Assembly (NCBI GenBank): GCA_964351475.1
Contig: CAYGOB010000001.1
Span: 4,459 to 68,458, forward strand
DNA from: an uncultured Candidatus Saccharibacteria bacterium
Lineage (GTDB): Bacteria; Patescibacteriota; Dojkabacteria; SC72
Reading direction: 5' to 3'
Length of the DNA: 64,000 nucleotides
The position numbers were made by a program, and so were the translations under genes. Shown here one piece after another: positions 4,272-49,557 of the stretch. Below the pieces are notes generated by a model that saw only the letters and a list, made by a program, of their open reading frames with translations, was not told where the DNA came from and searched no databases. Positions within the stretch are counted from its first letter, which is position 1, and each line of letters opens with the position of its first letter.

Positions 4272-4348
4272 ACAGGTCTATAAGGAACCAGAGGATAATG
4301 GCGGGATAAACACGCCTGGAATCTAAAGGGAGACAAATAAGACAGTAT
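4272..4348 (+). repeat. Interspersed promoter-bearing repeat, copy A.
   Basis: acaggtctataaggaaccagaggataatggcgggataaacacgcctggaatctaaagggagacaaataagacagtat. Lies 44 bp upstream of the tandem-repeat protein gene. Confidence 0.7.
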
Positions 4349-4391
4349 GGGAAAGTATGGAGATGTGTTATGTTTGTGATATAATACCCCT

Positions 4392-5351: not shown

Positions 5352-5439
5352 ATGTTTGCGGTAATTGGTTTAACATTTACTTCCCGTAAGGTCCTAAAAT
5401 TCTAATAACAATCCACATAAGCATTCCTGAGTATATTAC

Positions 5440-5515
5440 ACAGGTCTATAAGGAACCAGAGGATGTGGTGGGACATATACGTCTGGAACCTAAAACGAGA
5501 CAAATAAGACAGTAT
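5440..5515 (+). repeat. Interspersed promoter-bearing repeat, copy B (orphan: no downstream + strand gene).
   Basis: acaggtctataaggaaccagaggatgtggtgggacatatacgtctggaacctaaaacgagacaaataagacagtat, followed by aaaaaagggggag. Confidence 0.7.
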
Positions 5516-5658
5516 AAAAAAGGGGGAGATTCTTGTCTAAATAATTCTTGTTTTTTATTATACCTTTATACACAAACACAAAATTCAAAATGTTAACTTT
5601 TTCTTTGCGTTTGATTCCGTCTAAACGGTTGATTTTTGTTATAGAAATTTAAGATACT

Positions 5659-5684
5659 AACCACTAGTAGGTGGTTTTTTAATT
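5659..5684 (+). terminator. Rho-independent terminator-like hairpin plus T-run.
   Basis: aaccactagtaggtggtt (7-bp stem, 4-nt loop) followed by tttttaatttt. Lies 145 bp downstream of repeat copy B and just outside the 3' end of the minus-strand permease gene. Confidence 0.5.
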
Positions 5685-5757
5685 TTAATAACAATATTAT
5701 GAGAAATGAAGGAACATTAAAAATAGTTAAAGAGATATATGCATCGAGAGTACGACC

Positions 5758-7623: not shown

Positions 7624-8363
7624 TGTTTAATCTTTCTTAGATTATTCATTACCTCTTTTGTATTTGTTTTTTCATACACCTTAATTATCTTCCCATCAAA
7701 CATACTAACAGTTCTCTTTGCGTATGATACGTACTCAAGATTGTGTGTAACCATAATCACAGTCTTTTTTTGCTTCTTGTTTAATTCTGTTAGTATATTC
7801 ATTAATTCTTCTCCAGATTGGTAATCTAAGTTACCTGTAGGCTCATCAGCAATAATTATCTCTGGATCGTTTACCAATGCTCTTGCAAGAGATACTTTCT
7901 GTTGTTGTCCACTTGATAGTTCTGAAGGTAGGTATTTGGACCAATCTGTCATTCCTAATTTGTCTATTTTTTCTCTAGCAATTTCCATACCTTTAGACCT
8001 TTCTTCTCCTAGTAGTAATAATGGAAAAAGTACATTTTCTTCTACAGGTATAGATTTGATCCAGTTGGTTTGTTGATATACCATACTAATATATTTTTTT
8101 CTTAATTTGTTTCTTTCTTCTTCTGTACTACCGTTGTAGAGGTGTTTACCTTTAAAAAAGATATTTCCTTTTGTTGGTTCTTCTAAGCCTAGTATTATGT
8201 GTAACAGAGTAGATTTACCACATCCTGATGGTCCGAATATTATAATAAAGTCACCATCTTGAATATCCAAAGATATGTCTTTTAATACAGGGATATCTTG
8301 GTCTCCAACGGTAAAGGATTTGTAGAGGTTTTTTATTTCAATTATTGAGTCAGTTTTCATCAT
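7620..8363 (-). CDS. ABC transporter ATP-binding protein (MacB/LolD-like).
   Basis: Walker [10 protein letters not shown]. Signature LSSGQQQKVSLARAL. Walker [13 protein letters not shown]-loop VTHN. Confidence 0.9.
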   Translation of the reverse strand: MMKTDSIIEIKNLYKSFTVGDQDIPVLKDISLDIQDGDFIIIFGPSGCGKSTLLHIILGLEEPTKGNIFFKGKHLYNGSTEEERNKLRKKYISMVYQQTNWIKSIPVEENVLFPLLLLGEERSKGMEIAREKIDKLGMTDWSKYLPSELSSGQQQKVSLARALVNDPEIIIADEPTGNLDYQSGEELMNILTELNKKQKKTVIMVTHNLEYVSYAKRTVSMFDGKIIKVYEKTNTKEVMNNLRKIKQ

Positions 8364-8443
8364 TCTTAATAATATATATGAATTATTGAATTAGGACAAG
8401 ATTTTAGTTTGATATTGTATACATTCTATAATATATTATATCT

Positions 8444-14400: not shown

Positions 14401-14692
14401 ATCATGGACAACAGATGAGCCAGCTACAAGTCAGGTAGAGTTTGGAGAGGGTACAGGTAGTACGTATGCACAAAGAACACAGAAGGATTCTAATTTTAGT
14501 TACAATCATACAGTAGTAATATCTAACTTAGTACCATCTCAGGTATATCATCTTAGAGCAGTATCAGAGGATATGGCAGGTAATGTAGGGTATTCCATAG
14601 ATGTAGTAACAATAGCACCTAAGGTAACAGACAATGCCCTAGATTTAGTAATACAGAATTTAATGGAGACATTTAGATTTTTAAGAAGGTAG
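8444..14692 (+). CDS. Giant (2082 aa) signal-anchored surface protein. It has an N-terminal ConA/LamG-like region, two CBM-like jelly-roll modules, an Ig/Fn3-like central region and four C-terminal purple-acid-phosphatase-N-type Fn3 domains.
   Basis: N-terminal TM (LIGTLFLTIGLVVGTYLGLY). Two internal paralogous modules (KYKGTNSVKLQTGG...FGVRVKANRTVYIDEFSL and KYTGPSSAQLQTSD...FGVQVKANKTVNVDNFSL). Four repeats of the type ATIVWSTSRSADSRIQFG...YFYRAKWTDEDGN...TFTTA. The C-terminal ~1000 aa are collinear with ORF 21535-24630. Confidence 0.8.
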   Translation: MINALKEYFLKPRFHISRFEFNLIGTLFLTIGLVVGTYLGLYNVFKGLRAFNDTIHVWEYSEENISEYIYDDSIVGINDEGLYAPSNRLENGGFEEGLGGWSKKGEYILNDEFTTDRVAGEVDGTSAEPTGGTRTVIDSEDFISIGEGVLNVAGGTGTEGDPGLWYPLAITRIPGRMIVGTINLSTLGNTRFGFDLNTSGGINFGINFGSSSSLALYDGLSSVNVGSALSTDTNYQLAVILRSTGTYYYIKGGTFVNWTLLWISDNASNSTVYPTIVGRTGIFTADNIRIPTQTWLPTPLVHDTFTRVNGNVGSSEIVGPDGQETPQLQWSSGEIEDNRMVIRPELGEEVIVNGDMSSSEGWSVGSDWSIADGIASKVAGTTNQNISQGVLTSGLWYQAVWTLERSAGSFWAMFGTTALTYSHTTSGTFTETARANGGTAGIRGQSVAEGSVDNVSYKPLTLSSLFSTVSTSDADVIADVNITVTAGTQAGLVLNLDNTSSPANFIIVYTNGTQIRVDEVVNGVYTNKQTTSSTFTSGNLRVIKDGTKYRVYYNNVLVGTEQTITDESIINNTNHGLFSTYEGNSFDNFTIWPRTGFTDAPFEELTPSIDTEIKYKGTNSVKLQTGGVDANYLQTTNLGDTEIYTLTGYAYTDGSEVSSEDISLYYDNDILETRYIDMGEGWYKLEGEVIGEDSEKSFGVRVKANRTVYIDEFSLYRKINRIDNGMFINGLEGWNEQSPSDIEDLLTWIDFSDKDTLFINTGGTTPVNVDGDLIYRVADKSDGNDYWYAISAGVRPVYKENQLNGLSAAHFPAGNYLRTINSYGTYNKSIFTVARLLIDENKRNLYNRVSYNFWTRDGAIHLGRDSYISVPAVSDTNYIITALWDTGSNARLRLNRGIEEATGIAEGWASNYMWHLMSTAAEEGGEGYIYESIIYDRILSIEEYTAVESYLNNKWFLNSSLSTTTKYTGPSSAQLQTSDSDATFVQYLNLANTDTYTLTAYAYTDGSPVTTDDINLYFDNDILPTTFLDAGNGWYKLTATLTATDSYKAFGVQVKANKTVNVDNFSLDRGERYVIYTSNAYTNETMTSWDTFCEGDLEYQTCTPDSTQEGYSEIRYQLCTDDGSVCESENKWQYWNGTEWVVATDLDIHNNSASDLTQQVMQTIDTENKKLSVKTILTFDGYNPPILPKVSIGLSADTIPPETNASNLIMKTQPGGRTITNEGWNNTLMPYITWTQGADNKGGSGLKGYCVYLGQDQTADPQTSKGILGESPVDLETSTCGFIVEDNILDLSNTDYHSEPWLTSSTEPYYLKVKAIDRGNNVYEGESETFTFYIDTTPPTNVSFLSCASGNFSNALDMNFSWPTTAGPEAKDDYSDILGWQYKLNDINAQWKGTQTHTGLEIEYIPLGQSIYTLKQSDAETIISGSNVVYFRSVDNVGNFSSGATIRTCSISYGGAAPNFEDTDKVTITPNISQDNQYSLSWPSATPAPETQVSKYYYMINTAPPSTLSTLEANPATYINNSTSTAVPLRALPNVNKGVNTVYVVSVDNSEIPNYSPSNYITGTFTLNSTDPDNVGDLVASDSSIKLKSQWNVTLTWVVPEYKGAGNLTYEIYRSTNGVDFTHVGSTSGLSYVDSAPQSRMYFYKVYTKDGANSLSSGSNAVSITPTGRWTTPPELISEPEVENVTTQRATIVWSTSRSADSRIQFGTQSGKYADVEPSTPNHVTSHVMSLSGLTPNTTYFYRAKWTDEDGNVGISEEKTFTTAPPPVIKQVEVRNIGLESAVVNFTSEGASGVKIYYGRTSSFGGIREISTSSLESTYSVELSDLEDGTRYYFKINTLDVDGSEYDNQVNEFQTLPRPRVSNVRLQQVSGTAQSTILVTWDSNTEISSIVTYWPENNPSQARDEVSVELKKGEHRMMIRGLEPTTAYNLQVKGRDKMGNEAVSDTQRFTTATDTRPPVITDLRVEGSTIPPFATTAQQTSVQIVVSWTTDEPATSQVEFGEGTGSTYAQRTQKDSNFSYNHTVVISNLVPSQVYHLRAVSEDMAGNVGYSIDVVTIAPKVTDNALDLVIQNLMETFRFLRR

Positions 14693-14824
14693 TATGGCTA
14701 TCTAGAGTTGATATATACAATAATATTGTTAAAAGCAAATTACTAAATATAATTTGATTTTTAATAACTTAGTTTTTAGATCTCGAAATAATCAAGGTTT
14801 AACAACCTTTCTAAGGGGTAGTAC

Positions 14825-14901
14825 ACAGGTCTATAATGAACCAGAGGTTATTGATGGGACATGCATGTCTGGAACCTAAAATGAGACAAAAGAGACAGTG
14901 T
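14825..14901 (+). repeat. Interspersed promoter-bearing repeat, copy C.
   Basis: acaggtctataatgaaccagaggttattgatgggacatgcatgtctggaacctaaaatgagacaaaagagacagtgt. Upstream of the NUDIX gene. Confidence 0.7.
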
Positions 14902-14948
14902 AAAAAAGGGGAAAAAAAGGTGTCCAACTTTTGATATAATGGACATAC

Positions 14949-15431
14949 ATGATAAAGACTATTACTAAATCCAAAAATCCTAATTTAACAAGACCCAGGA
15001 TTTTGCTCGTAGTTCGAATGATTATCATCAATAATGGAAAGATACTCCTTATACAAAGAAGTGGTGAAGAATCTAACAATCCTCTTAGATGGGAAATTCC
15101 AGGAGGGAAGTTAGATAAAGGTCAAGATTTAACACAAGCTGCAACAAGAGAGATGATAGAAGAGGTTGGTCTATTTGCAATCCCAGTTAAACAACTTGTA
15201 TTTTTTGATTCTGATATCAGTAGTAACAATAAATATAAAGGAATTCCGTATATTCAGTTGGCTGGACTTTATGCTTCCGAAGGTAATAAGGTACGAATCT
15301 CAAAAGAACATGAAGACTACAAATGGGTTACTCTAAGTAATTCTCTTAAATTAGACCTAACTGAATTTACTAGGAAAGCACTGTTAGCATGGGAGGTAGA
15401 TATCATGAGGTTTTTGTCCAAGAAGAAATGA
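14949..15431 (+). CDS. NUDIX hydrolase.
   Basis: Nudix box GGKLDKGQDLTQAATREMIEEVG (G-x5-E-x7-REUxEExGU). The true start may be the internal M at 15018 (MIIINNGKILLIQR). Confidence 0.8.
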   Translation: MIKTITKSKNPNLTRPRILLVVRMIIINNGKILLIQRSGEESNNPLRWEIPGGKLDKGQDLTQAATREMIEEVGLFAIPVKQLVFFDSDISSNNKYKGIPYIQLAGLYASEGNKVRISKEHEDYKWVTLSNSLKLDLTEFTRKALLAWEVDIMRFLSKKK

Positions 15432-15446
15432 GATGTAATCTGAAGG

Positions 15447-15468
15447 TATACACATGCCTGGAACCTAG
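15447..15468 (+). repeat. Partial, degenerate copy (D) of the interspersed repeat, right half only.
   Basis: atacacatgcctggaacctag, immediately followed by tataat. Lies 35 bp upstream of the orn start. Confidence 0.45.
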
Positions 15469-15502
15469 TATAATTAAATCATTAATTTGATTAAGGGTTA
15501 AT

Positions 15503-16042
15503 ATGTCTCAAGTAATAGATAAATTAGTATGGATAGATTTAGAAACAACGGGATTGAGTATTAAGAAGGATAAAATTATTGAAATAGCAGTATTGATAAC
15601 AGATACCCAATTAAATCTTCTAGATGAGAAGGGTTATGTAGCTTTTGTAAATATAACTGACAAAGATATTGCTCTAATGGACGATATTGTAAAAGAGATG
15701 CACACTAAAAATGGGGTGATTGATATGTGTAAAAAATCTTCCTTTACAATAGAGGATATAGATAAAGGAGCCGTGGAATACATATCTAAATTTGTTCAAA
15801 AAAATGAAGCTCCACTTTGTGGTAATAATATCGCTTTTGACAGATCTTTTATTGAATATAATATGCCATTACTTGTTGACTACCTTCATTACAGAAATAT
15901 AGATGTTACTACTATTAAGCAGTTAAGTCAGATTTGGAGAAACGATGTTTGTAAAAAGACAGATTCAACTCATGAAGCAATGGATGATATAAAGGAGAGT
16001 ATAGAAGAATTAAGGCATTATAAAGAAAAATTTTTTGATTGA
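15503..16042 (+). CDS. orn: Oligoribonuclease (DEDDh 3'-5' exonuclease).
   Basis: LVWIDLETTGL...IIEIAVLITD (Exo I motif). GNNIAFDRSFI (Exo II). HEAMDDIKESIEEL (Exo III, DEDDh). Length 179 aa, typical of Orn. Confidence 0.85.
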   Translation: MSQVIDKLVWIDLETTGLSIKKDKIIEIAVLITDTQLNLLDEKGYVAFVNITDKDIALMDDIVKEMHTKNGVIDMCKKSSFTIEDIDKGAVEYISKFVQKNEAPLCGNNIAFDRSFIEYNMPLLVDYLHYRNIDVTTIKQLSQIWRNDVCKKTDSTHEAMDDIKESIEELRHYKEKFFD

Positions 16043-16052
16043 GTATAGTGGA

Positions 16053-16128
16053 TGGGTCTAAGAGGAACCTAAGGGATTTGGCGGGACATACACGTCTGGA
16101 ATCTAAAATGAGACAAAAGAGACAGTAT
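16053..16128 (+). repeat. Interspersed promoter-bearing repeat, copy E (left half degenerate).
   Basis: gggtctaagaggaacctaagggatttggcgggacatacacgtctggaatctaaaatgagacaaaagagacagtat. Confidence 0.65.
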
Positions 16129-16150
16129 CATAAATAGGGTAGTGTGATAT

Positions 16151-16393
16151 TTAATCTTCTATATTAGGACGAAGAATCCAATGAAGGGTTCGAACTTGAT
16201 CCGACATGTGTGGTACGTCTCTAAAGAATTTGTCAGGGGAATCCCAAATGAACTGAGCGGCGTTTCTAATTCTTGTCTCAAGGGGTAAAATATTGGTATC
16301 CTCTGCTTTTATCCCCAAAACTTTTTCAACATCCTCAATTTTTTGAATAGTGTTTCTGCAATCTTTTGGTTCAGTTTTTTCCCAATTTTCCAT
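16151..16393 (-). CDS. Hypothetical small protein (80 aa).
   Basis: Clean ORF with mixed composition. No recognisable motif. Confidence 0.35.
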   Translation of the reverse strand: MENWEKTEPKDCRNTIQKIEDVEKVLGIKAEDTNILPLETRIRNAAQFIWDSPDKFFRDVPHMSDQVRTLHWILRPNIED

Positions 16394-16450
16394 ATTTATA
16401 AGAATTAAGATTATATTGATATTAAGAATATATCAAAAACGGAGGAATTT

Positions 16451-16512
16451 GTCAGTGGAACAACTCAATAATGGCGGGACATACACGTCTGGAATCTAAA
16501 GTAAGATAGTAT
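16451..16512 (+). repeat. Interspersed promoter-bearing repeat, copy F (left half degenerate).
   Basis: tggaacaactcaataatggcgggacatacacgtctggaatctaaagtaagatagtat. Lies 64 bp upstream of the sortase gene. Confidence 0.65.
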
Positions 16513-16575
16513 TACAGGAAAGTGCCTTGTTAATAATAACCATTTAGTATCGTGTTATAATTTAGCATAATACTA

Positions 16576-17172
16576 ATGAAAACCTTAAAACTTTTAAAAA
16601 AGTTAAACCTAATTTTCTCCATTATAATAGTTGTTATTGCTATTTATATTCTAATATATCCTCTTATACCAGAAATAGCTTTTAGAATGAGTGCTAATAA
16701 ATTCCAGGGATATGCATATCAATCTACAAAGACGATAGAAGTTTTACAAGAGGAAGCTAAAGAACTTCCTCCAATACCTGAAGATAATAGACTTGTTATT
16801 CCTAAAATCTATGTAAATGCTCCAATAGTAGATGGAGAAGATGAGTCAGTCTTAGATTTTGGTATGTGGCGTATTCCAAATACAAGTACTCCAGACAAAG
16901 GGGGCAATACAGTTATTGCTGGTCACAGAACTCTGTATACAAGTGGTCCAGATACCTTATACAATTTAGATAAGATTGAAATAAATGATTTACTATTGGT
17001 ATATTGGCAAGGTAAGGAATATGTATATAAGGTTTATGATATTACAGAGGTGAGTTCGGAGAGTATGGAAATTTTAGATAATACAATAGATTCAAGAATT
17101 ACTTTATTTAGTTGTACACCAAAATGGACATCAGAACAAAGATTGGTAGTAAAAGCCACTCTTCAACAATAA
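16576..17172 (+). CDS. Sortase-family transpeptidase.
   Basis: N-terminal TM. Catalytic His in VIAGHRTLY. TLxTC-type Cys motif ITLFSCTP. Conserved Arg near the C-terminus (EQRLVVKA). Confidence 0.8.
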   Translation: MKTLKLLKKLNLIFSIIIVVIAIYILIYPLIPEIAFRMSANKFQGYAYQSTKTIEVLQEEAKELPPIPEDNRLVIPKIYVNAPIVDGEDESVLDFGMWRIPNTSTPDKGGNTVIAGHRTLYTSGPDTLYNLDKIEINDLLLVYWQGKEYVYKVYDITEVSSESMEILDNTIDSRITLFSCTPKWTSEQRLVVKATLQQ

Positions 17173-17265
17173 AATCTAGGATCATTTTTGAATTAATAAC
17201 TCTTGTATTTAGAACAATTCTAGTCTCTATTGGAATCCTATATATTATTCGACATTCTCAAAATA

Positions 17266-18231
17266 TTATCTCTCTTTGGAAGTTCTTGACGAGAACATAG
17301 TTTCTCTTCGAGATAATACCAACAGAAGGGTAGAGATACCTGCAAGTACTAATATTACTATATTCCATGTAATTCCTTTTGTACTTAAAGTAGTACCATT
17401 TGTACCTGGTAATTTAGCGGTAGTATCTGTGCTTGTGTCTGTGGTTGTGGTCGTGGTTGCAGAGGCTACACATATCTCACTAGTAATAGTATCTGAATCT
17501 AATGTAACCGCAGCATTTCTAGCTAATAATCTTCCATAAACTGTTACGTCGGTGGTAGCAGAGATTGATGTTAATGCCATTATGGTTCCTACAAACGTTG
17601 AGCCTGTACCAAGTGTTGCAGAACTTGTAACTTGCCAGAAAACATAACATGATTGAGCACCATTTATAAGTCGGACTTCACTGCCAGAAGCAGTTACTAA
17701 ATCTGAAGAAGCTTGAAAAATGAAAACTGCATTTGGATCTCCCTGAGCATCAAGTATTAATGGGCTCTCAGCTGTTATATTTGCGGTTGTAGCATTTCCA
17801 AAAGCATAAACACCTGAAGTTAAGGTTTGTCCACCAAGTTGGTTATCTACATCAGTAAATGTTTGAGTTGGTGTTCTACCAGCAGCATCAAGATAGGCGG
17901 TTGTAAGATCGTTTTTAGCTTGAGTTAACAAATCAGGATTATTTACTGATCCTGCAGGTCCGGATGCATCTACAGAATAAATAGTTCCAGTTACTTCCTC
18001 AGCTGTTAGACCAGCATAATTACTACCAGAGGCAGGACTTAAACCAACATCTCCTGTAATAATAGAAGTTGGAATATTCGTAATTTCTGTACCAGCTAAA
18101 ACTGCAAAACTTTCAGCAGTACCAAGATTTACTGTTGTTAGTGCAGTTTGAGCATTTACAAGTTGAATTCCAATTATAGCAATAACAAAAGATACAAGCA
18201 TTGTTATTGAAATCTTACTAAATGTTCTCAT
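17266..18231 (-). CDS. Ice-binding-like (DUF3494) surface protein with a Thr-rich stalk and a C-terminal cell-wall sorting signal.
   Basis: Signal peptide. DUF3494 signature AESFAVLAGTEITNIPTSIITGDVGLSPASG. Linker ATTTTTTDTSTDTT. Then KLPGTNG motif, hydrophobic helix ITWNIVILVLAGISTLLLVL and positively charged tail SRRETMFSSRTSKER. Convergent with the sortase gene. Confidence 0.75.
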   Translation of the reverse strand: MRTFSKISITMLVSFVIAIIGIQLVNAQTALTTVNLGTAESFAVLAGTEITNIPTSIITGDVGLSPASGSNYAGLTAEEVTGTIYSVDASGPAGSVNNPDLLTQAKNDLTTAYLDAAGRTPTQTFTDVDNQLGGQTLTSGVYAFGNATTANITAESPLILDAQGDPNAVFIFQASSDLVTASGSEVRLINGAQSCYVFWQVTSSATLGTGSTFVGTIMALTSISATTDVTVYGRLLARNAAVTLDSDTITSEICVASATTTTTTDTSTDTTAKLPGTNGTTLSTKGITWNIVILVLAGISTLLLVLSRRETMFSSRTSKER

Positions 18232-18336
18232 TGAAAAGCCCCACTAAACTTATTAATTACAACATAATTGTAATCTTTTATATTTTAAGGGTTTTAAGGA
18301 GAAATGTCAATTTTTGAAGGTTTTCTACTAATGATT

Positions 18337-18391
18337 GATATTGGCGGGACATACACGTCTGGAACCTAGAATGAGACAAATAAGACAGTAT
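18337..18391 (+). repeat. Interspersed promoter-bearing repeat, copy G (right half plus a short left stub).
   Basis: gatattggcgggacatacacgtctggaacctagaatgagacaaataagacagtat, followed by aaaaaggggaggg. Upstream of the DGR target gene. Confidence 0.7.
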
Positions 18392-18514
18392 AAAAAGGGG
18401 AGGGTATATGTCTCAAATTTGTTTTTTGAACCTTTTGTGAATAAGTTGGGATGCAAGTATGCAACCGACACATCTTCTTGCAAAATATTTTTATTTCTTG
18501 TAAATTATACTAGG

Positions 18515-19393
18515 ATGCAAAAAACAAACAAGAATAAAGAGATGACCAAGTTAGAAACAGTACTAATTATTTTGATAGCCATAGCAACTATTGGATCATT
18601 TCTGGCAGGAAGGGCAGTAGCAGAACAACATGAGGGTACTCCTAAAGCAGATTCAACCTCAATAATAAAACAACTATCCGATGACCTTACAGCACTAGGA
18701 TACGGTTCAACTGAACCAGGTAGTTGGGGCAATGCTGGTGAAATGTGGAATAGGATATATTCAGCAGGAGTATGGGTACCATCTTTAGCAGATGCTCAGG
18801 ACTCAGATGTAGTATCTGGAAAACAATTCTATTCAGGCTCTGACCGCACATTGAGAACAGGCTCTTTTCAAACTATAGATTGGGAGAAACAATCTCTACT
18901 TCAAATGGATAACAGGGATAGTACAGACTATGGAGAGACAAGTAGTTGGGACAAGACTAATAATAGCCCAGAGGTTTGGTATGATGAGGTAACAGGTTTG
19001 TATTGGAGTGCAAGTCAGGGTAGTATGGCAAATGATTTTGTAAGGTCTACCTGTGATTTTTACACTACAGTCCCAAGAGGAGATTATAATGGGGGGGATG
19101 AGAGTTGTGATGCCGCAATAAATCATTGTGCAACATTGAGCCTAGCTACACATACAAATGCTTCAGCAAAGACAGATTGGTATTTACCATCTCAGATAGA
19201 GTTAATGCAGGCATACATAAATGGAATATACAAGAAGACCAGTACTGGTTGGGTTACTACAAGCCAATTTTGGTCTAGTACCGAGTTTCAGAGTTATCCT
19301 ACTATTGCATGGGGCACTTACCTAGGTAATGGACAGACGAGCCCTCATACTAAGACCACGAGCCTCGCTGTTAGGTGTGTTCTCCGGGATTAA
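18515..19393 (+). CDS. DGR target (variable) protein: signal-anchored, with a C-terminal DUF1566 (Lcl-C / C-type-lectin-like) domain carrying the variable region.
   Basis: DUF1566 signature DWYLPSQIELMQAY...FWSSTE...AWGTYLGNG...TSLAVRCVLRD. The track ORF starts at 18335 inside repeat copy G, so the start is more likely the M at 18515 (MQKTNKNKEMTKLETVLIILIAIATIGSFLAG). The last 123 nt are homologous to the TR. Confidence 0.8.
   Translation: MQKTNKNKEMTKLETVLIILIAIATIGSFLAGRAVAEQHEGTPKADSTSIIKQLSDDLTALGYGSTEPGSWGNAGEMWNRIYSAGVWVPSLADAQDSDVVSGKQFYSGSDRTLRTGSFQTIDWEKQSLLQMDNRDSTDYGETSSWDKTNNSPEVWYDEVTGLYWSASQGSMANDFVRSTCDFYTTVPRGDYNGGDESCDAAINHCATLSLATHTNASAKTDWYLPSQIELMQAYINGIYKKTSTGWVTTSQFWSSTEFQSYPTIAWGTYLGNGQTSPHTKTTSLAVRCVLRD
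19267..19389 (+). other. DGR variable region (VR) at the 3' end of the target gene.
   Basis: 123-bp homology to 19721-19843. About 19 of 20 mismatches fall at positions that are A in the TR. The last 41 bp (19349-19389) are identical to the TR. Confidence 0.85.
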
Positions 19394-19483
19394 ATACTAT
19401 AGGGCGTTTGGTTGTGGGTATTTTAAATATTTCCCCTTTTTCTTTTTGTAATACCTATTTTAAAATCAAAACAACGCCCGATT

Positions 19484-19505
19484 TACAGTGTATTTATACA
19501 CTGTA
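19484..19505 (+). terminator. Perfect 9-bp palindrome hairpin downstream of the VR (tacagtgta-ttta-tacactgta) followed by an AT-rich tract.
   Basis: Seen directly. Weak intrinsic terminator for the target gene, or the DGR VR-proximal structural element. Confidence 0.35.
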
Positions 19506-19720
19506 ATTTAAAATTTAAAAAATTCCTTGCAACATACTAATTAATATGCAACAATTATCATAAGCAAGATCTTACAATCTCAACTCCAAAGATGAGCAAT
19601 GGGTTGTGAGGGAGGCATAATATTTAATCCTACTTGCTGTACCTATTAGGTAATGTTATACAAAGAATCTTCTGTTTAATACATCAGGTTCTTGGTGGAT
19701 TTAAAAATTAGCAAGTTTAG

Positions 19721-19843
19721 ATTTTGGTCTAGTACCGAGAATCAGAATAATACAACTAATGCATGGAACACTAACCTAAATAATGGAAATACGAACAATA
19801 ATACTAAGACCACGAGCCTCGCTGTTAGGTGTGTTCTCCGGGA
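19721..19843 (+). repeat. DGR template repeat (TR).
   Basis: Homologous to the VR. The TR is dense in AAT/AAC codons and reads FWSSTENQNNTTNAWNTNLNNGNTNNNTKTTSLAVRCVLRE in the VR frame. Track ORF 19692-19892 is this TR, not a gene. Confidence 0.85.
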
Positions 19844-19852
19844 GAAGATATT

Positions 19853-20215
19853 ATGCCTCAGGCAAATAATACAGACAAACCCTTATATTTAGCTGTGTAC
19901 AAGCTCATTATCTATCTGTATAGTATAGTTCACAATCTTCCAAAAGAACATAAGTATAGATTAGGAAATGACATCATAGACATTAGTTGGAAGACCCTAG
20001 ATTCCATAATGTACACAAATACATTAGGAAACGAAGATAAACATATCCAGATAAAGAAAACCTTAGCAATATTTAATACCTTAAAATATAGGTTAAGGGT
20101 TTTAAGTGATTTAAAACTCTTAAGTCATAGGCAATATGCACACATAATTAAACAAACGGTAGAAATAAATAAAATGCTAAGGGGTTGGTACAATTGGTCT
20201 AAAAAACTTGTATGA
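19853..20215 (+). CDS. avd: Avd-like accessory variability determinant (small four-helix-bundle protein).
   Basis: About 121 aa, basic and helical (YKLIIYLYSIVHNLPKEHKYRLGNDI...LKLLSHRQYAHIIKQTVEINKMLRGW). Sits immediately 3' of the TR, the position typical of DGR avd. Start chosen at the M after a GGGAGAAG SD-like stretch. Confidence 0.55.
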   Translation: MPQANNTDKPLYLAVYKLIIYLYSIVHNLPKEHKYRLGNDIIDISWKTLDSIMYTNTLGNEDKHIQIKKTLAIFNTLKYRLRVLSDLKLLSHRQYAHIIKQTVEINKMLRGWYNWSKKLV

Positions 20216-21382
20216 GTCTTGAGGTTCTAAATAGGACTTCAGTATCCCAAAATGCTTTTCATATATATTCTTCCTTAAACGATACGAGTTACTCCATCTT
20301 AGGTGTCCAAAAGTAGAGTTAATACTTGTACAGATAGATTCAAGATCTTCTTTAGAAGGAGGTAATTTAATCTGGACAGCCTCTTCAATACAAAAACGTC
20401 TGTTTATGAGAAAACCGTTATTAAAGTAATGTAATTTTTTCTTCAGATTTCCAACTGTCCTGTTTCTGGATAGTATATATTCTGGTCTAATAACATATCC
20501 TACAAAATCAATCCCCTGATACACGCTACCATAGGTGGTTTTTTCTTTCTTTGTATTTAGTTTTAATTTTTCTAAAAGAAAATTCTCTGTTAGTTTCTCT
20601 GCTTTTTGTAATTCTTTTATGTTATTACTAATCAAAAGCATGTCATCGGCGTATCTTAAATAGTATTTGATTTTTAATTGACGCTTAATGAATTGATCTA
20701 CTTCATTTAGATACAAATTAGCAAAAAACTGTGAAGTCAAGTTCCCTATAGCTAAACCTTTCTTTTTGGGTATAGTAAAGAGGCTTTTACCTTTGGGTAG
20801 AAGCTGTAAGAGTGTTTTGTCTCCCTGTAATTCGAAGTCTTGGCAGGGGTTGTGATAAATGATCTTCATAGAAAGCCACGTTAGGTCGTCAATATCTTTT
20901 GTTGGCATAGGAAGTTTTGAGAGATCCTTCAAAAGTATTTGAGCAAGTATATCTTTATCTATGGAGTAGAAGAAACTTCTAATATCCATTTTAAGGTAAT
21001 ATGCTTTAGAGGTATTATTATGTGTGATCTTATTAAGAAAACTAGATGTTCGTTGAACACCTAGTAAGCCACCTTTATTTTTTCTACAAGCAAGAGAGTC
21101 AAAGATAAATTTTTTATCTATTTCATCTTGAATGTACATGATTAGTAAGTGATGAATAATTCTGTCGTTAAAGTAGGCGGCAAATATTTCACGAATGGTA
21201 GGGTAAGATATTACAAAGCATGAGGAGGTCCCTATTTCATAACTTTTTTCTCTGAGAGCAGTTGATAGGATGTGGAGGGTGTCTTCATAATCTAATTCAC
21301 AATAGAGTGCATGATTACTATTTCTTTTGCCTTTTCTACAAGAATAATATGCTCTAAGTAAGGATGAGAGATTAAAAATCAT
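20177..21382 (-). CDS. DGR reverse transcriptase.
   Basis: RT motifs: LAIGNLTSQFFANLYLNEVD (the DGR-specific I/LGxxxSQ motif 4, in place of the group II intron QGxxxSP) and YLRYADDMLLI (YADD catalytic box). 401 aa. Adjacent to the TR/avd. Confidence 0.9.
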   Translation of the reverse strand: MIFNLSSLLRAYYSCRKGKRNSNHALYCELDYEDTLHILSTALREKSYEIGTSSCFVISYPTIREIFAAYFNDRIIHHLLIMYIQDEIDKKFIFDSLACRKNKGGLLGVQRTSSFLNKITHNNTSKAYYLKMDIRSFFYSIDKDILAQILLKDLSKLPMPTKDIDDLTWLSMKIIYHNPCQDFELQGDKTLLQLLPKGKSLFTIPKKKGLAIGNLTSQFFANLYLNEVDQFIKRQLKIKYYLRYADDMLLISNNIKELQKAEKLTENFLLEKLKLNTKKEKTTYGSVYQGIDFVGYVIRPEYILSRNRTVGNLKKKLHYFNNGFLINRRFCIEEAVQIKLPPSKEDLESICTSINSTFGHLRWSNSYRLRKNIYEKHFGILKSYLEPQDSYKFFRPIVPTP

Positions 21383-21534
21383 CTCTGATATTATATCATT
21401 AGGTCCTTGGGATTAACACAAAACTAATTTTCTTCTATTTGCCGTACTCTATTTTTAAAAAGACTCAATGTGTTAAACTCTATATAGTCTGTATTCTTGT
21501 CTTTTAAGCGATCTAATGCTAAACTTTTTCTAAC

Positions 21535-24500
21535 ATGAAAAAACCTGTCCGGATAAATATAAAAATACCAGCATTAACGTTACTCCTCTTCGCTATTATA
21601 GGTATATCAATATTCTTCCTCTCCAGAGTATATGCTACCAACCAAACTCCAATTAAAGGAAGTGCTACTGTACTAAATACCTCTAATGAAATATTCTTTA
21701 CCTCTAGTGTATATGGAGCTAACGTAGTAATATCGGATCCAGACCCCGAAGATGAAAACAAACGTACAATCTCTGGATATGCATGGTCTCAAGATATTGG
21801 GTGGATAAAGTTTACTGCAGGAGAATCCCCTGGGGTATTTGTAGATTATGCAACAGGACAAGTAAGTGGTTCTGCCCATGTAATGAACACAGGTAATGAA
21901 ATTAAATTTGATTCTAACAACAGTAATACAATTGTTAATACAAATACTGGAGTATTTAGTGGATATGTTTGGTCTGAGGATGTAGGGTGGATAGATTTGG
22001 GAACAGACCAAGTATATGTCCAAGACACACTACCTCCTCACAACCCAGATGAAATATCAATATATTCAGATGGAAGTAGAACAAAAGAGATTGTGATTTT
22101 GGAAGGAAATGTTTACAACTACAGTAATCCCCATATAGAGTGGGAAGAACCCATAGATCCCAGCACAGAATCTCACGGTTATCAGTCTAGTGGCATATCA
22201 GGATACTACGTATATTGGGGGCCAAGTAATACAGCTATACCCACAAGCTCAGGTACTTTTCAAACAGATAATTACATAGATGTAGAAGTAACCCAAAGTG
22301 GTATGCACTACTTAAACATTCAAGCAGTAGACAATCACGGAAATATACATACCAATCCTGAACATGAATATACTGTTTTAGAGTACAAAGCAGACATTAT
22401 TCCCCCAACCAATGTTAAATACATAACTACACCAAGTGGAAATTTTGGAAATGTTAATGACATGTTCTTTAGTTGGCCAAGTGCTCCAGGAGTAGCAAGC
22501 AGTGATGAAAATGGAATACTCGGATGGCAGTACAGTCTTAACGATGTCAGCAGTTGGACAGGAACCCACGAAAGTGAAAGATTTGACCTTGAGTACATAC
22601 CATTTGAAGATACTACCTACTCCCACTACTTTACAGAAGAAAAAGACCTGGGAAATATGGTAGTAGGTAACAACATCATATATTTTAGAACCATAGACAA
22701 TGCAGGCAATTTTAGTGGGTATATATCTGGAGGAATCTCATACGGAGGTTTGGCTCCTACCTTTGGAGAAGAACACAATGTGACTGTAACTCCCAACACC
22801 AACACCTCTAACGAATTCTCTCTCTCATGGCCCTCTGCCACACCAGAGGAGGGAAGAACCATAGTCTCATATTACTATATGATAAATAGAACACCTCCTA
22901 GCACATACAATACTTTAGTAGACAACCCCTCTCTTTATGTCCCTGTTACAACAACATCTGTATCTACAAGGATGTTAAACGGAGCCGTAAAAGGAAGCAA
23001 CACAGTATATGTCGTAGCTGTAGATGACTTAGATGGATACTCTCCAAGCAACTTTATTACTGGCACATTTACCCTTAACAGCACTCTCCCAGACCCTGTA
23101 ATTAACCTAAGTATAGCAGACACCTCAATACGTGAAGCCAAACTATGGAGAGCAAGTTTAACTTGGGAGGCTCCTGCTTACAAAGGAGATGGTAACCTCT
23201 CCTACGTTATACAAAGAAGCCTAAATGGTAGTACATGGGCTACGGTAGGTTCAACAACAGGAACGTCATTTTCTGACATTGTCCCAGAAAGTAGAACATA
23301 CTATTACAGAATAGGGGTCTCTGATGGTTCTGACCAAAGCATAGCAAATCCAACCCCCTCAACCACAGTATCCTCCTTTATTCAAGGAAGATACACAGAA
23401 GCACCAGAGTTACTCTCTGGAATCATAGTATCTAATGTCGGAACAAGAAAAGCTACAATATCGTGGGTAACAAGTAGAGAAAGTGATACTAAAATTGCAT
23501 TCGGACTAAGTAGTAATGACTACTTTGAAGAAGAAGTATACAGTTCAAAACAGGTAACAGAGCATGAAATAACGCTACATAATCTCCAACCTGAAACGAC
23601 ATACTACTTCAAAGCCAGATGGACAGACCAAGACGGCAATACAGGAGAAAGCAAAGAAGTCTCCTTTAGAACAACTGACTCTCCCCAAGTTTACTCTTCA
23701 AATGTAGATATGGTTGGGCTAGATTATGCCATAATATCCTTTGAGGTCTTTGGTGCTAGCAAAGCAGCCGTAGTATATGGAAGGTCTCTAGCATATACAG
23801 CAATTGAAGAGATAAACACCTCTCCTGCAAGAAGCAAATACTCTGTAGTTTTGGAAGACCTAGACGATGGGGTTGAATACAATTTCAAAATTAGGTTAAC
23901 AGATGCAGATGGATATATCTATGACTCCATAGAAAACAACGTCTTTAGAACACCTCCTAGACCACAGATATCGAATGTACGAGTACAAGAATTAAGAGAG
24001 GTAGCAAGTCCCACAGTCGTATTTAGTTGGGAAACAAATACACATACTAACTCAATAGTTAGATTTAGAGAAGATTTTGAAGGTGCAAGAGAAAGAGACC
24101 AAGTAAGTATGGAAAAAATAAAGGGAGAGCATGAGATGACATTAACAGGACTGGATTCAGAAACCCCATATATTGCCTATGTAGAAGGAGTAGATGACTA
24201 TGGTAACAAAGCAGTATCCGAGGGCGTGAGATTTACTACCGATGTAGATACCAGGCCGCCTAAAATATTGAATGTGAAAATTGAGCAGGACTTACAAGGT
24301 CGCTCTGTACAAACTGACAGAAGCAGAAGTGCCCAATTCATTATTAGTTGGGAAACGGATGAACCAGCAACAAGCAAGATAAATTATGGAGAAGGAGGGG
24401 GAGGAGCATATACCTCTAGTTCAAGATTAGACCAAGAGTACAGAATGAAACATCTTGTCATAGTATCTGGTCTAACACCTTCAAAAGTATATAGTTTAGA

Positions 24501-24630
24501 AATTGAATCCACCGATCCATCAGGAAACACAGGCAGATACGGTCCACTAGTATCCATAACTCCAAAATCTGCTAATACTGTTTTAGAAACAATACTCAAT
24601 ACTATGTCAAATATGTTTAATATATTCTAA
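21535..24630 (+). CDS. Large (1031 aa) secreted Fn3/PAP-N-repeat surface protein, paralogous to the C-terminal half of ORF 8444-14692.
   Basis: Signal anchor (ALTLLLFAIIGISIFFL). Collinear similarity to 8444-14692, for example IPPTNVKYITTPSGNFGNVNDMFFSWPS...GWQYSLND...YFRTIDNAGNFS...SYYYMINRTPPSTY...TGTFTLNST, and four ATISWVTSRESDTKIAFG-type domains. Its stop overlaps the start of the downstream ABC gene. Confidence 0.8.
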   Translation: MKKPVRINIKIPALTLLLFAIIGISIFFLSRVYATNQTPIKGSATVLNTSNEIFFTSSVYGANVVISDPDPEDENKRTISGYAWSQDIGWIKFTAGESPGVFVDYATGQVSGSAHVMNTGNEIKFDSNNSNTIVNTNTGVFSGYVWSEDVGWIDLGTDQVYVQDTLPPHNPDEISIYSDGSRTKEIVILEGNVYNYSNPHIEWEEPIDPSTESHGYQSSGISGYYVYWGPSNTAIPTSSGTFQTDNYIDVEVTQSGMHYLNIQAVDNHGNIHTNPEHEYTVLEYKADIIPPTNVKYITTPSGNFGNVNDMFFSWPSAPGVASSDENGILGWQYSLNDVSSWTGTHESERFDLEYIPFEDTTYSHYFTEEKDLGNMVVGNNIIYFRTIDNAGNFSGYISGGISYGGLAPTFGEEHNVTVTPNTNTSNEFSLSWPSATPEEGRTIVSYYYMINRTPPSTYNTLVDNPSLYVPVTTTSVSTRMLNGAVKGSNTVYVVAVDDLDGYSPSNFITGTFTLNSTLPDPVINLSIADTSIREAKLWRASLTWEAPAYKGDGNLSYVIQRSLNGSTWATVGSTTGTSFSDIVPESRTYYYRIGVSDGSDQSIANPTPSTTVSSFIQGRYTEAPELLSGIIVSNVGTRKATISWVTSRESDTKIAFGLSSNDYFEEEVYSSKQVTEHEITLHNLQPETTYYFKARWTDQDGNTGESKEVSFRTTDSPQVYSSNVDMVGLDYAIISFEVFGASKAAVVYGRSLAYTAIEEINTSPARSKYSVVLEDLDDGVEYNFKIRLTDADGYIYDSIENNVFRTPPRPQISNVRVQELREVASPTVVFSWETNTHTNSIVRFREDFEGARERDQVSMEKIKGEHEMTLTGLDSETPYIAYVEGVDDYGNKAVSEGVRFTTDVDTRPPKILNVKIEQDLQGRSVQTDRSRSAQFIISWETDEPATSKINYGEGGGGAYTSSSRLDQEYRMKHLVIVSGLTPSKVYSLEIESTDPSGNTGRYGPLVSITPKSANTVLETILNTMSNMFNIF

Positions 24631-26777
24631 TGCCAAAAAAGAAACTAATAAGTGTTAAAAATATAAATAAGAGCTTTCTCCTAGGTAAAAGAAGAAACAA
24701 TGTTCTTAAAGATATAAATCTAGATATCTATTCTGGTCAACTAACAAATATCTTTGGACCATCAGGATGTGGTAAATCTACACTTCTAAACGTCATCATG
24801 GGTATAGAGAAGCCAGATACAGGCATTGTAAAGATACATGACGAAGATCTATGGAAGAAAAACACCGACGAACAAGCAGACATAAGAAAAAGAGAAATTG
24901 GAATAGTATATCAACAACAAAACTGGGTAAGGTCATTGACAGTCATAGAAAACGTTGCTCTTTCTGCACAGCTCTTAGGGTTTGGTAAGGCAGAATCCTT
25001 ACAAAGGGCACAAGAGGTATTAAAAGAAGTGGGAATGTTTAAATTTAGAAACTTCTACACCTCAGAACTCTCCTCAGGAGAACAACAAAGGGTTGGTTTA
25101 GCAAGAGCCCTCATAGCCGACCCAGAAATTATCCTAGCAGATGAGCCAACAGGGAACCTGGATACAGAAAATGGGGATGAGGTTGTTAAAATATTGAAGA
25201 GTTTAGCTAAAAAAGGCAAAGCTGTAGTTTTAGTAAGTCACAATCCCGAATATTTGGACACTTCTGACACTATAGTAATTATGAAAGATGGCTATATCAT
25301 TGACTCTCTCAAACAACAAGAGGGAATTGTAAAAAAAGTTAGAACTATTTTAGCCCAAACAGAATTAAACAACGAAGAGAAAATCTTTGAAAATGCTAGG
25401 AGCAAACCAAACATATCTCAACCATACTATCCCACAGAAACCCTATTTGAGAAAATCAAAGTATATTCTAGGTTAATTTACAGCTTCTTTTACAAATCTT
25501 TGCTACTTTTTGTAATATCTGCTCTTACAATTTTCAATCCTACTAAAGCAGAAGAATTTAGAAAGAAAGCAACTGTTACAGGGGAGAATAATATCCCTAT
25601 CCTAGATCTAACAGAGCTCTCTTTTAAAAACCTTTTCTTTAAAAAATTCAGAACGGTAGTAACAATATTGGGAGTAGGATTAGGTACGGGTTTTGTAGTT
25701 TTACTTCTCTCACTGGGTTACGGTATGGAGAGGTTAGTTATTGATCAGATAACAGCGGCAGAAGACTTAAGTCAGGTTGATGTTTTTCCTAAAGTTGGAA
25801 GCCAATTAGAACTAACCGATGCACTTATTGAGAAGATTGCAGGTATATCTGGAATAGATACAATATATAGAATAAAAAACTTCCCAGGGAGGATAGATTA
25901 CAAAGGCTCTACAGTAGATGTAGTAGTGTATGGAGTAGAGTTTGAATATTTAGAAAATTCTCCTGTTAGAAAAGTGGCAGGTGAATTCTTAGAAGAAGAG
26001 TCAGACAAATACTCTGCAATTGTTAACAAAGAATATGTTGATTTACTAGGGTTGTTGGGGGATGACGTAGTAGGAGAGAGATTAGATTTAAGTGTCATTC
26101 AGTCCATGCCACAGGAAGACAGTGAGCCTCAAAACATTCTAGCCCAGGTATTAGGTGTTGTTGAAGATGATTCTCCTCCTGTCGTATATCTTAAAATGGG
26201 CTCAGTTAGGGACTATACCACTGATGAGTATTCTGAATTGACAATAGTTGTTAACAGAGATGTTTCCTTGGAGGTAGTTAGAAAGCAGATAGAGTCTTTA
26301 GGGTTAGAGACTTTTTCTGTAATGGATACAATAGAGCAAGTACAAAACATTTTCACCTATGTAAGATATGGGTTGTTAGGTTTTGGGGTATTGGCTTTTG
26401 CCATAGCATTTTTAGGTATGATAAATACATTGGTTGTTTCATTACTTGAAAGAACTAGAGAGGTTGGGTTATTAAAAATTATTGGTATGAAGAGAAATGA
26501 TATTAGGTTTTTGTTCATAATTGAGTCTATGTTTATTGGACTTTTGGGGGGTATAACAGGTGTTATTCTGGGTGTTCTTGGTGGATATTTAGTATCTATA
26601 CTGATATATCTTTTCTCAATGTCAAGAGGTGTAGAGTTTATGATAATTTCATCTTTCCCCCTCCTTATGATGATACTTGTTGTTTTTTGTACAACGATGT
26701 TAGGTTTCTTTACAGGTCTTTACCCAGCAAATAGGGCTGTTAAGATACCTCCTCTTGATGCAATTAGGTATGAGTAA
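24630..26777 (+). CDS. MacB-type ABC exporter, fused ATPase plus FtsX-permease.
   Basis: N-terminal Walker [10 protein letters not shown], signature [15 protein letters not shown], Walker [13 protein letters not shown]-terminal FtsX signature [31 protein letters not shown]. Translationally coupled to the upstream gene (TAATG). Confidence 0.85.
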
Positions 26778-26988
26778 AGAGTTTATGAACGGATTAGATT
26801 GTTTTAAACTATACCTGTACGATAGAAAGAACTTTTAGTTAGGGTACATAAGGCTTTCACCTTCGAACCGAGAGCTCTTAAAAACATCTCTTTTTTGACT
26901 ATTTTCATCCACCAGACCTTATTTTTGAGAACATCTCTTTTTTAGCATTAAATAACTCAATCCCCATAAGGGTTTTAAAACATAGTGT

Positions 26989-27015
26989 ACAGGTCTATAA
27001 GGAACCAGAGGATAT
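26989..27015 (+). repeat. Left-half-only copy (H) of the interspersed repeat, directly abutting the 3' end of tRNA-Asp.
   Basis: acaggtctataaggaaccagaggatat, then tggcgg, which is the reverse complement of the tRNA CCGCCA 3' end. Confidence 0.6.
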
Positions 27016-27092
27016 TGGCGGAATGGACGGGACTCGAACCCGCAGCCTTCGCAGTGACAGTGCGATGCTCTAACCAATTGAGCTACCACTCC
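27016..27092 (-). tRNA. tRNA-Asp (anticodon GTC).
   Basis: The reverse complement folds as GGAGTGG / TAGCTCAATTGGTTAGAGC / TCGCA-CTGTCAC-TGCGA / AGGCT / GCGGG-TTCGAGT-CCCGT / CCATTCC-G-CCA. CCA is encoded. Confidence 0.85.
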
Positions 27093-49391: not shown

Positions 49392-49557
49392 GTCGGACTT
49401 AGTCATAAATCCTTACTATTACAATAACTATTAAGGTTTTCTACTAGGAATTTAATATACTATAAGCTCTCTAAGATAGTTGACAGAGCTTTAAATAGGT
49501 GATAAATTTTAAATGTACTTTAACAGTCTTGAGTTTTTAACTCATGCTATGCGAGGT

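Follow-up and report, generated by a model that had tools for sequence, protein, structure and literature searches.

The stretch of DNA analysed here (64,000 nucleotides, referred to as the window) belongs to an uncultured bacterium deposited as Candidatus Saccharibacteria and placed by GTDB among the Dojkabacteria (GenBank assembly GCA_964351475.1, contig CAYGOB010000001.1, positions 4,459 to 68,458 of the forward strand). It contains a tRNA-Asp(GTC) gene with an encoded CCA end, and to the left of this gene an array of short repeated sequences that divides some 23 kb of accessory genes into blocks. The repeat is composite. Its left arm, L, was recognised as the 27-mer ACAGGTCTATAAGGAACCAGAGGATAT, which occurs four times in the window when up to two mismatches are allowed (at 4272, 5440, 14825 and 26989), with no occurrence expected in shuffled sequence. 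Its right half, referred to here as the core C, is the 25-mer TGGCGGGACATACACGTCTGGAACC, with six starts at 4299, 5466, 14852, 16079, 16472 and 18342, and directly after C the window copies carry a third segment, arm R (TAAAATGAGACAAATAAGACAGTATAAAAAGGG). The copy of L at 26989–27015 touches the CCA end of tRNA-Asp without a spacer, and the sequence that follows it is TGGCGGAATGGACGGGACTCGAACC, the reverse complement of the tRNA 3′ end. An earlier note on this DNA had described a half-repeat fused to tRNA-Asp, a right half of the same length at the equivalent position of the full copies with 17/25 identity to the tRNA end, and the restriction of all copies to the region between 4.2 kb and the tRNA. 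The first is borne out by ARAGORN and Rfam, which place the encoded CCA at 27016, and the second by the six copies of C; as to the third, the copies begin at 4.27 kb, and neither the remainder of the window nor the 8.7 kb on its left contains another. The seven sites all lie between genes, in one common orientation. The features of the sites are as follows.

4272–4354, plus strand: site c1, the leftmost and the distal edge of the island; partial left arm 4272–4298, core C 4299–4323, R 4324–4354.
5409–5527, plus strand: site c2; left arm 5409–5465, core 5466–5490 with hexamer TGGTGG, R 5491–5527.
14795–14913, plus strand: site c3; left arm 14795–14851, core 14852–14876 with the decayed hexamer TGATGG, R 14877–14913.
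16039–16134, plus strand: site c4; left arm of a different subtype (TAAGAGGAACCTAAGGGATT), core 16079–16103, R.
16457–16506, plus strand: site c5; left arm reduced to its proximal 15 nt (GGAACAACTCAATAA), core 16472–16496, truncated R.
18342–18400, plus strand: site c6; core 18342–18366 and R with no recognisable left arm, forming the left end of the 8.7-kb tRNA-proximal cassette.
26830–27015, plus strand: site c7, the right-end module of the tRNA-proximal cassette.
26861–26869, 26902–26915 and 26982–26996, plus strand: conserved blocks of c7, respectively CTTCGAACC, TTTTCATCCACCAG and ATAGTGTACAGGTCT.
26962–26977, plus strand: hairpin plus T-run of c7.
26992–27015, plus strand: element-side half of the c7 junction, GGTCT N4 GGAAC N10.
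27016–27021: hexamer TGGCGG, the putative crossover region, equal on the other strand to the tRNA CCA, discriminator and CC.
27016–27092, minus strand: tRNA-Asp(GTC) with encoded CCA, the anchor of the island (ARAGORN and Rfam).

The accessory-gene blocks between these sites, defined from site positions and Pfam matches, are referred to as cassettes.

4299–27015, plus strand: island of six cassettes.
4299–5465: cassette 1, repeat protein.
5466–14851: cassette 2, ABC/FtsX transporter and a 2082-aa protein.
14852–16078: cassette 3, NUDIX and RNase T.
16079–16471: cassette 4, a 0.4-kb block.
16472–18341: cassette 5, sortase and an ice-binding-like protein.
18342–27015: cassette 6, diversity-generating retroelement (DGR), 1031-aa protein and ABC-FtsX.

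The left arm extends beyond the 27 nt by which it was recognised: about 60 nt (26954–27015) are kept as a unit, and about 190 nt (26830–27015) in half of the family described below. The arm subtype of c4 recurs at two other loci (L019 and L026), and the whole arrangement is the same in four independent assemblies of this region from the same population.

The resemblance between C and the tRNA end has to be read with some care. Aligned without gaps from the junction, C matches the end of tRNA-Asp at 17 of 25 positions (P ~3e-5 against random 25-mers of the window), but 8 of these 17 positions (TGG and GAACC) would agree for any tRNA with an encoded CCA, and the middle 17 nt match at only 9 positions (P ~0.02); the scores are 14–16/25 against other tRNA ends and 15–18/25 against tRNA-Asp alleles. 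The proposal that C is a weak mimic of the tRNA end therefore stands on its positional equivalence, its equal length and the existence of intermediates such as TGGCGGGATATACGGGTATGGAACC, with 21 positions in common with C and 20 with the tRNA end, and does not stand on the 17/25 score, which taken alone is weak evidence for mimicry and gains weight from the comparative data. C probably derives from a copy of a tRNA end, as the intermediates suggest, and under the integration model set out below the two would be alike because both fill the same half of a recombination site. A dif-like symmetry in C is weak.

These repeats are not peculiar to the window. Scanning one genome per species for C yields 33 matching loci, 32 of which are in metagenome-assembled genomes of Dojkabacteria and other Patescibacteria (some deposited as Saccharibacteria), and a pattern scan of metagenome contigs with the left arm yields at least 120 loci; a scan of viral contigs for C gave no match. 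An nhmmer profile of only the 60 nt to the left of C finds 272 sites in 148 collected loci, and at these sites every readable junction leads into TGGNGG, with TGGCGG in 238 of the 259 full cores. What follows the hexamer varies: the 259 cores comprise 148 of the C type, 72 that are tRNA-Asp-like, 22 of a type referred to as D, nine of tRNA-Ser and eight others. About three quarters of the C-type cores have R after them. The tRNA-Asp-like cores are either the whole gene or just its last 24–25 nt followed by unrelated DNA, and tRNA-Ser is likewise found as the whole gene; near-exact copies of the tRNA-Asp end, 24–25 nt long, thus occur at junctions in relatives, whereas the window itself has only the diverged C. 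The type D core (TGGCGGAGGATATGGAATGACTTCC / TGGCGGAGGATATGGAATGACTTCCGAA) occupies the tRNA-end position at its 22 sites, which, among the matches listed, are in L004, L005, L011, L020, L023 and L024 and in 16 metagenome loci. Arm subtypes and core types assort independently, and the tRNA-fragment core of L007 matches the tRNA-Asp allele of another lineage, not its own.

Conservation around the junction is sharply delimited. Information content is high at positions −36 to −19 and −15 to −10, reaches 1.89 bits per position in TGGCGG, and falls from about 1.0 to 0.34 bits after position +25, giving a conserved span of roughly −36 to +25. Further upstream, the right-end module of about 190 nt is conserved in ~120 sites, about half of all, and within it the blocks CTTCGAACC and CCACCAGG/TTTTCATCCACCAGG are invariant, TTTTCATCCACCAGG lying always 109–112 nt before the junction. 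On the minus strand of this module, CCUGGUGG is complementary to the CCGCCA end.

The association with tRNA genes is specific. Across all loci, with tRNAs predicted by ARAGORN, the left arm abuts the CCA end of 30 of 33 tRNA-Asp(GTC), 5 of 5 tRNA-Ser(GCT) and 3 of 3 tRNA-Ser(GGA) genes, and of none of 17 other tRNA genes (Tyr, Leu, Val, Arg, His, Gln and Asn); all of the abutted tRNAs end in CCGCCA. The junction of L with tRNA-Asp is present in three other genomes found through C and in at least 31 metagenome contigs. The tRNA-Asp of L123 has neither an arm nor an encoded CCA, and in the window, where tRNA genes lie at 27016, 31122, 31222, 43208 and 61772, only two of the five encode CCA (tRNA-Asp and tRNA-Gln). 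Both observations fit the idea that the TGG at the junction is brought in by the element, which may thus have supplied the encoded CCA of tRNA-Asp. In the comparison with related genomes that the earlier note had proposed, the far flank of tRNA-Asp (thioredoxin, TsaC/E, TsaD) is syntenic across genomes, and the content of the island side is different in every one of them.

The cassettes have moved, and the limits of what moves can be located. Many of the 114 complete cassettes in the collected loci have close relatives in other loci beside unrelated neighbours. The most informative is a 1.45-kb cassette of two small genes and no recombinase that is 99.9% identical in three assemblies (L159, L131 and L069). 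On the left side, the arms that precede it are different in all three, up to TGGCGG. On the right side, its own arm and the TGGCGG after it are identical, and the sequences part at core position 7, leading in one case to another tRNA-fragment cassette, in one to the tRNA-Asp gene and in one to a third core. What is exchanged therefore begins within one TGGCGG and ends within the next, so that a core belongs to the cassette that follows it on the right and an arm to the one that precedes it on the left. That identity ends at a 6-nt segment on both sides speaks for site-specific rather than homologous recombination; the breakpoints are confined to the hexamer. A pair of LD-carboxypeptidase cassettes had pointed to the core travelling with the cassette on its left, a view overruled by the nucleotide-level breakpoints of the 1.45-kb cassette.

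A candidate for the enzyme emerges from the genes of the loci. Only the clustering of 1014 open reading frames, followed by Pfam, brought up a large serine recombinase (about 433 aa; Resolvase, Recombinase and zinc-ribbon domains), whose nearest solved relatives are the integrases of phages SPbeta (SprA) and TP901-1. It is found in 9–11 loci, always co-oriented with the sites, on the island side, and 1–8 kb from the junction of the arm with tRNA-Asp, and it accompanies 5 of the 16 junctions that have at least 4 kb of flank. The earlier note had suggested looking for a tyrosine integrase nearby. Phage_integrase has no Pfam match in any protein scanned, no tyrosine recombinase or transposase was found, and phmmer searches of the 1014 reading frames with XerC, lambda Int, gamma-delta resolvase and IS200 TnpA queries gave no match; the enzyme associated with these arrays is a serine recombinase, and none was found in or near the window.

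Loci fetched through homologues of the recombinase, and not through the repeat, provide an independent test of this association. In a 724-kb Dojkabacteria contig (JBMNHC01; L170, P0006) and in a second lineage (L172–175, P0005) the recombinase lies 3–4.6 kb from a junction of the arm with tRNA-Asp, on an element that also carries a ParB-methylase, a small helix-turn-helix (HTH) protein, a large terminase subunit and a variable restriction-modification module. Another Patescibacteria genome (L176) has the same module with a 64%-identical recombinase homologue, and there the element ends in GGGTCTTGGAGCAACC... followed by TGGCGG (in full, GGGTCTTGGAGCAACCAAGGGTGTT joined to TGGCGGAGGG...), at the CCA end of a tRNA-Ser. 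The GGTCT N4 GGAAC N10 motif seen at c7 terminates the serine-recombinase elements in L170, L172 and L176 as well. On the single contig JBMNHC01 a cassette array, the recombinase element and the junction of L with tRNA-Asp all lie within 31 kb, and the array (L017, four sites) is just distal to the recombinase element, as expected if the newest arrival adjoins the tRNA. The left end of the recombinase element was not found within 10 kb. Homologues of the recombinase number in the thousands, at 60–93% identity, and a mobile module of ParB-N6-methylase, HTH protein, terminase, restriction-modification genes and serine recombinase, often with DUF2779, recurs across Patescibacteria, for example at the following positions.

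L170, 1–15951: mobile module.
L172, 1–14091: mobile module.
L176, 2187–10825: mobile module.

We think it likely that the block from 4.3 to 27.0 kb is an additive island that arose by serial site-specific integration at the CCA end of tRNA-Asp. This was one of two explanations offered in the earlier note, and it is favoured by the arm at 30 of 33 tRNA-Asp genes, the tRNA-end copies within arrays, the breakpoints in TGGCGG and the linked serine recombinase. Each cassette would start on the left with a core of 25 nt, C in some cassettes and a copied tRNA 3′ end in others, often followed by an R that would also form the upstream part of the first gene's promoter, and its right end would be arm L, with GGTCT N4 GGAAC N10 as its proximal 24 nt. 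In a circular cassette L would be joined to the core through TGGCGG, and recombination inside this hexamer with the tRNA end, where it is the complement of the CCGCCA 3′ end, would insert the cassette, leaving its L fused to the tRNA (as at c7) and its core against the L of the previous cassette, which would give rise to the full repeats. The likely enzyme is a phage-type large serine recombinase carried by terminase-bearing elements of about 20 kb, which would act in trans on cassettes that have no recombinase of their own. The sequences show the anatomy of the sites, their conservation across the family, their co-orientation and tRNA preference, the breakpoints in TGGCGG and the association with the recombinase; catalysis by this enzyme, passage through circular intermediates, mobilisation in trans and present activity in this genome are inferences. 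The island in the window may nonetheless be partly fossil, because two of its hexamers read TGGTGG and TGATGG and the arms are truncated or lost at c5 and c6.

Several observations weigh against this interpretation or sit uneasily with it. First, of the islands with 4 kb of flank or more, two thirds have no recombinase, and for the window none was found in the reading frames scanned with Pfam, nor in the genes called over the 8.7 kb left of it (L047). Second, no gain or loss of cassettes is seen among near-identical contigs of the window's population, and none of the window cassettes was found in other loci. Third, both sides of the hexamer carry GTCT(N0-4)GGAAC in the same direction, and the sites showed no dyad symmetry; half-sites of serine integrases are usually inverted, and a direct orientation is unusual. 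Fourth, to our knowledge canonical serine integrases do not recombine hybrid or attP-like junctions, as tandem insertion requires, although the staphylococcal Ccr enzymes offer a precedent for laxer choice of sites. Fifth, the type D core has no match to any tRNA in the collected loci. Sixth, the conserved right end of about 190 nt far exceeds the needs of a recombination site, and could be a packaging site or a site for an accessory protein. Finally, most loci were fished by patterns taken from the repeat itself, which biases the collection towards conserved copies, and short-read metagenome contigs may be mis-joined at repeats, although the junction sequences are still local evidence, and both JBMNHC01 and the four assemblies of the window's own region are in agreement with the arrangement described.

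One of the other explanations is that the repeat is purely a cis-regulatory intergenic module under selection, made up of a terminator hairpin, activator or UP sites and a promoter, and that its contact with tRNA-Asp is incidental. In many copies an extended −10 box (TGnTATAAT) comes after R, with the ATG of the next plus-strand gene 5–10 nt further on; L begins with a hairpin and T-run after the preceding gene; and an OmpR-type regulator and a kinase are encoded just left of the island. In the window the box is found at three sites.

4355–4394, 14914–14951 and 16507–16578, plus strand: extended −10 after R.

The distance of 5–10 nt between this box and the start codon suggests that leaderless mRNAs are made from a promoter borne by the cassette, and it is very likely that R also serves expression. 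Nonetheless, the arrays do not behave as regulation alone would have them. None of the 71 loci with two or more sites (median spacing 1185 bp, quartiles 969 and 1850 bp) has sites in mixed orientation, irrespective of the neighbouring genes, and cassette genes lie on either strand. R is present only where the next gene is co-directional and is missing before an opposite-strand gene, yet L and the core stay whatever the orientation of the gene, which is how a recombination site behaves and not a promoter or terminator. The core, moreover, can be a 24–25-nt copy of the tRNA end or a whole tRNA, and moved cassettes have their breakpoints in TGGCGG. A promoter role of R is compatible with serial integration and no rival to it, and we regard an exclusively regulatory origin of the repeat as unlikely. 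A reading of GGAAC/CGTCT as an extracytoplasmic-function (ECF) sigma or sigma-54 promoter was rejected, as the spacing is wrong.

The cassettes might instead be shuffled by RecA-dependent homologous recombination between the repeats, for example after transformation, with no dedicated recombinase. The repeats, at 60–190 nt, are long and alike enough to be substrates, most islands including that of the window are without a recombinase, and RecA is encoded in the window. The flanks of the 99.9%-identical cassette, on the other hand, differ up to the 6-nt TGGCGG at both ends, which leaves no long identity for such exchange; neither the specificity for tRNAs ending in CCGCCA nor the sharp boundary of the 25-nt core is expected; and the serine-recombinase elements end in the same junction. 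This explanation is therefore improbable.

It is also conceivable, though very unlikely, that the units are minus-strand genes for small RNAs derived from tRNA, with ...CCCGCCA as their end and the trailer of tRNA-Asp shared for 3′ processing. Read on the minus strand, each unit does end in CCGCCA followed by the same trailer as tRNA-Asp, its sequence is nearly invariant across species, and promoter-like sequences (TTGAGA/TAGACA-17-TATACT) are present upstream on that strand within R, directed towards the core (5511–5539, 14897–14926 and 18387–18416). TATACT is also the −10 hexamer before tRNA-Asp. Against this, Rfam 15 reports only tRNAs (in the whole window at the gathering threshold, and by E-value in 14.7–18.5 kb and 26.7–27.15 kb); the best non-tRNA match at the repeat is a faint one to permuted tmRNA (11 bits, E=4, threshold 47), and a sub-threshold match of 20 bits falls on a tRNA gene. 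Single-sequence folds of four copies on both strands have z scores of −0.3 to −2.8 with inconsistent structures, and RNAalifold finds no consensus structure and no covariation in 38–40 diverse copies on either strand. Many cores, furthermore, are bare 24-nt tRNA fragments followed by unrelated DNA. A tRNA-like fold of C plus R was rejected (the T-stem cannot pair and ARAGORN is silent), as was a derivation of R from the tRNA body, to which only GACAGT aligns, with a gap and without significance.

The other explanation in the earlier note, that a native tRNA-Asp trailer seeded a dispersed repeat resembling a miniature inverted-repeat transposable element (MITE), is barely tenable: the left arm is identical at the tRNA and at three other copies in this genome and its terminal pairing ACAGGTCT/AGACAGT gives a weak 8-nt inverted match, but the copies are clustered in one co-oriented array beside the tRNA rather than dispersed, visual inspection of the sequences flanking c1–c3 revealed no target-site duplications, and the arm belongs to incoming elements, since it also ends recombinase-bearing elements at tRNA-Ser in another lineage and is missing from the tRNA-Asp of L123, which has no encoded CCA.

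Returning to serial integration at the tRNA end, the closest concept described so far is the tRNA-seeded additive island of Prochlorococcus; composites of the staphylococcal cassette chromosome (SCC), integrons and clusters of attC sites lacking integron integrases (CALINs) are functional analogues. The tycheposons that form the Prochlorococcus islands integrate at tRNA genes, stack with partial tRNAs between them and leave mostly integrase-less material, and 474 of 501 carry a tyrosine recombinase (Hackl et al., bioRxiv 10.1101/2020.12.28.424599). As with tycheposons, a full-length tRNA stands alongside the island and new elements enter at it, pushing older ones outward; partial tRNA copies lie between elements, most of the material has no integrase, the cargo concerns niche and defence, and some elements resemble phage satellites. 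The arrays described here differ in their association with a large serine recombinase, in consisting mostly of cassettes of one or two genes and about 1.2 kb with a conserved end of 60–190 nt and a shared promoter arm, in having the junction at the very CCA end, and in that the commonest “partial tRNA” is the diverged 25-mer C.

The SCC and SCCmec elements of staphylococci use large serine recombinases (Ccr) for insertion at the 3′ end of rlmH and are tens of kb long; in SCC arrays, tandem elements lie between short direct repeats that copy the target, and pseudo-elements without recombinase are presumed to be mobilised in trans. The two systems have in common large serine recombinases, a junction at the 3′ end of a single conserved gene, target-copying repeats and many recombinase-less elements, whereas in the present arrays the target is a tRNA and the recombinase has its nearest relatives among phage integrases and is accompanied by a terminase and ParB-methylase module. 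With integrons and CALINs the arrays share their length and co-orientation, cassettes that are mostly of a single gene, toxin-antitoxin cargo, the many arrays without a nearby recombinase, and insertion at one privileged end. Like the cassettes here, those of integrons are each bounded by a recombination site, which is structured and 60–140 nt long. Here, by contrast, no IntI was found, cassettes have their own promoter and the anchor is a tRNA end and not attI; the aligned sites contain no GTTRRRY/RYYYAAC pair, no R''/R' boxes and no conserved fold. Although they have the co-oriented array of short cassettes, they are not integrons, as both IntI and attC are missing. Prophages with serine integrases (phiC31, Bxb1, TP901-1 and SPbeta) have the same enzyme domains, a recombinase near one end of a terminase-bearing element, a conserved site of about 50–60 bp and exchange within a very short segment. 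They differ from the present case in that the half-sites here are not obviously inverted and that tandem insertion needs a site that is already hybrid; we know of no serine-integrase prophages that build arrays of tiny satellite cassettes.

Full-text searches of the literature turned up no account of arrays like these from Dojkabacteria or Patescibacteria. We suggest, as a tentative generalisation, that they could form an integron-like platform for gene capture based on a phage-type large serine recombinase in Dojkabacteria and perhaps other Patescibacteria. Cassettes of one or two genes, each with a half-site resembling a tRNA end, its own promoter for a leaderless gene and a tail of 190 nt that is possibly a packaging signal for a helper, would be inserted in trans and serially at the CCA ends of tRNA-Asp and tRNA-Ser, and would make up the main pool of accessory genes.

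The cargo is in keeping with typical accessory material, consisting across loci of toxin-antitoxin pairs, restriction-modification systems, surface proteins and small enzymes. In the window, the tRNA-proximal cassette contains a complete DGR at 18335–21382, with a target gene that has a C-type-lectin-like end (Lcl_C), a variable and template repeat pair at 19267–19400 and 19721–19854 (84% identical), Avd at 19829–20215 and a reverse transcriptase on the minus strand at 20177–21382. The gene at 4392–5351 in cassette 1 encodes a 319-aa protein of 29-residue repeats (..GLAGLDSERAW..) derived from 87-nt tandem repeats, with no Pfam match. The OmpR-type regulator and kinase adjoin the island directly on its left; to the right of tRNA-Asp there are housekeeping genes for thioredoxin, TsaC/TsaE, TsaD, enolase, RecA and aminoacyl-tRNA synthetases. 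On contig k141_612511 (L047, 461–1894), about 11 kb to the left of the island, there is a DUF2779 gene on the opposite strand with no recombinase beside it. In other genomes genes of this kind flank the serine recombinase, and the present one may be what is left of an autonomous element. Elsewhere in the window, a unit of about 124 nt is repeated in roughly three tandem copies (83% matches) at 49548–49920, between the isoleucyl-tRNA synthetase and CarD-like genes, and has no Rfam match.

The left arm followed by TGGCGG is a simple signature by which such islands can be found in metagenomes, and the recombinase, as a candidate serine integrase whose natural target is defined (the CCA end of tRNA-Asp or tRNA-Ser), is a possible tool for genome engineering. 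The arrays also present a natural case of recombinase-less cassettes that apparently depend on a helper element. The bacteria of these candidate phyla have tiny genomes in which gene gain and loss are poorly known, and a conserved system of cassettes would account for the location of their accessory genes (surface proteins, DGRs, transporters and toxin-antitoxin pairs) and for the movement of these genes between lineages.

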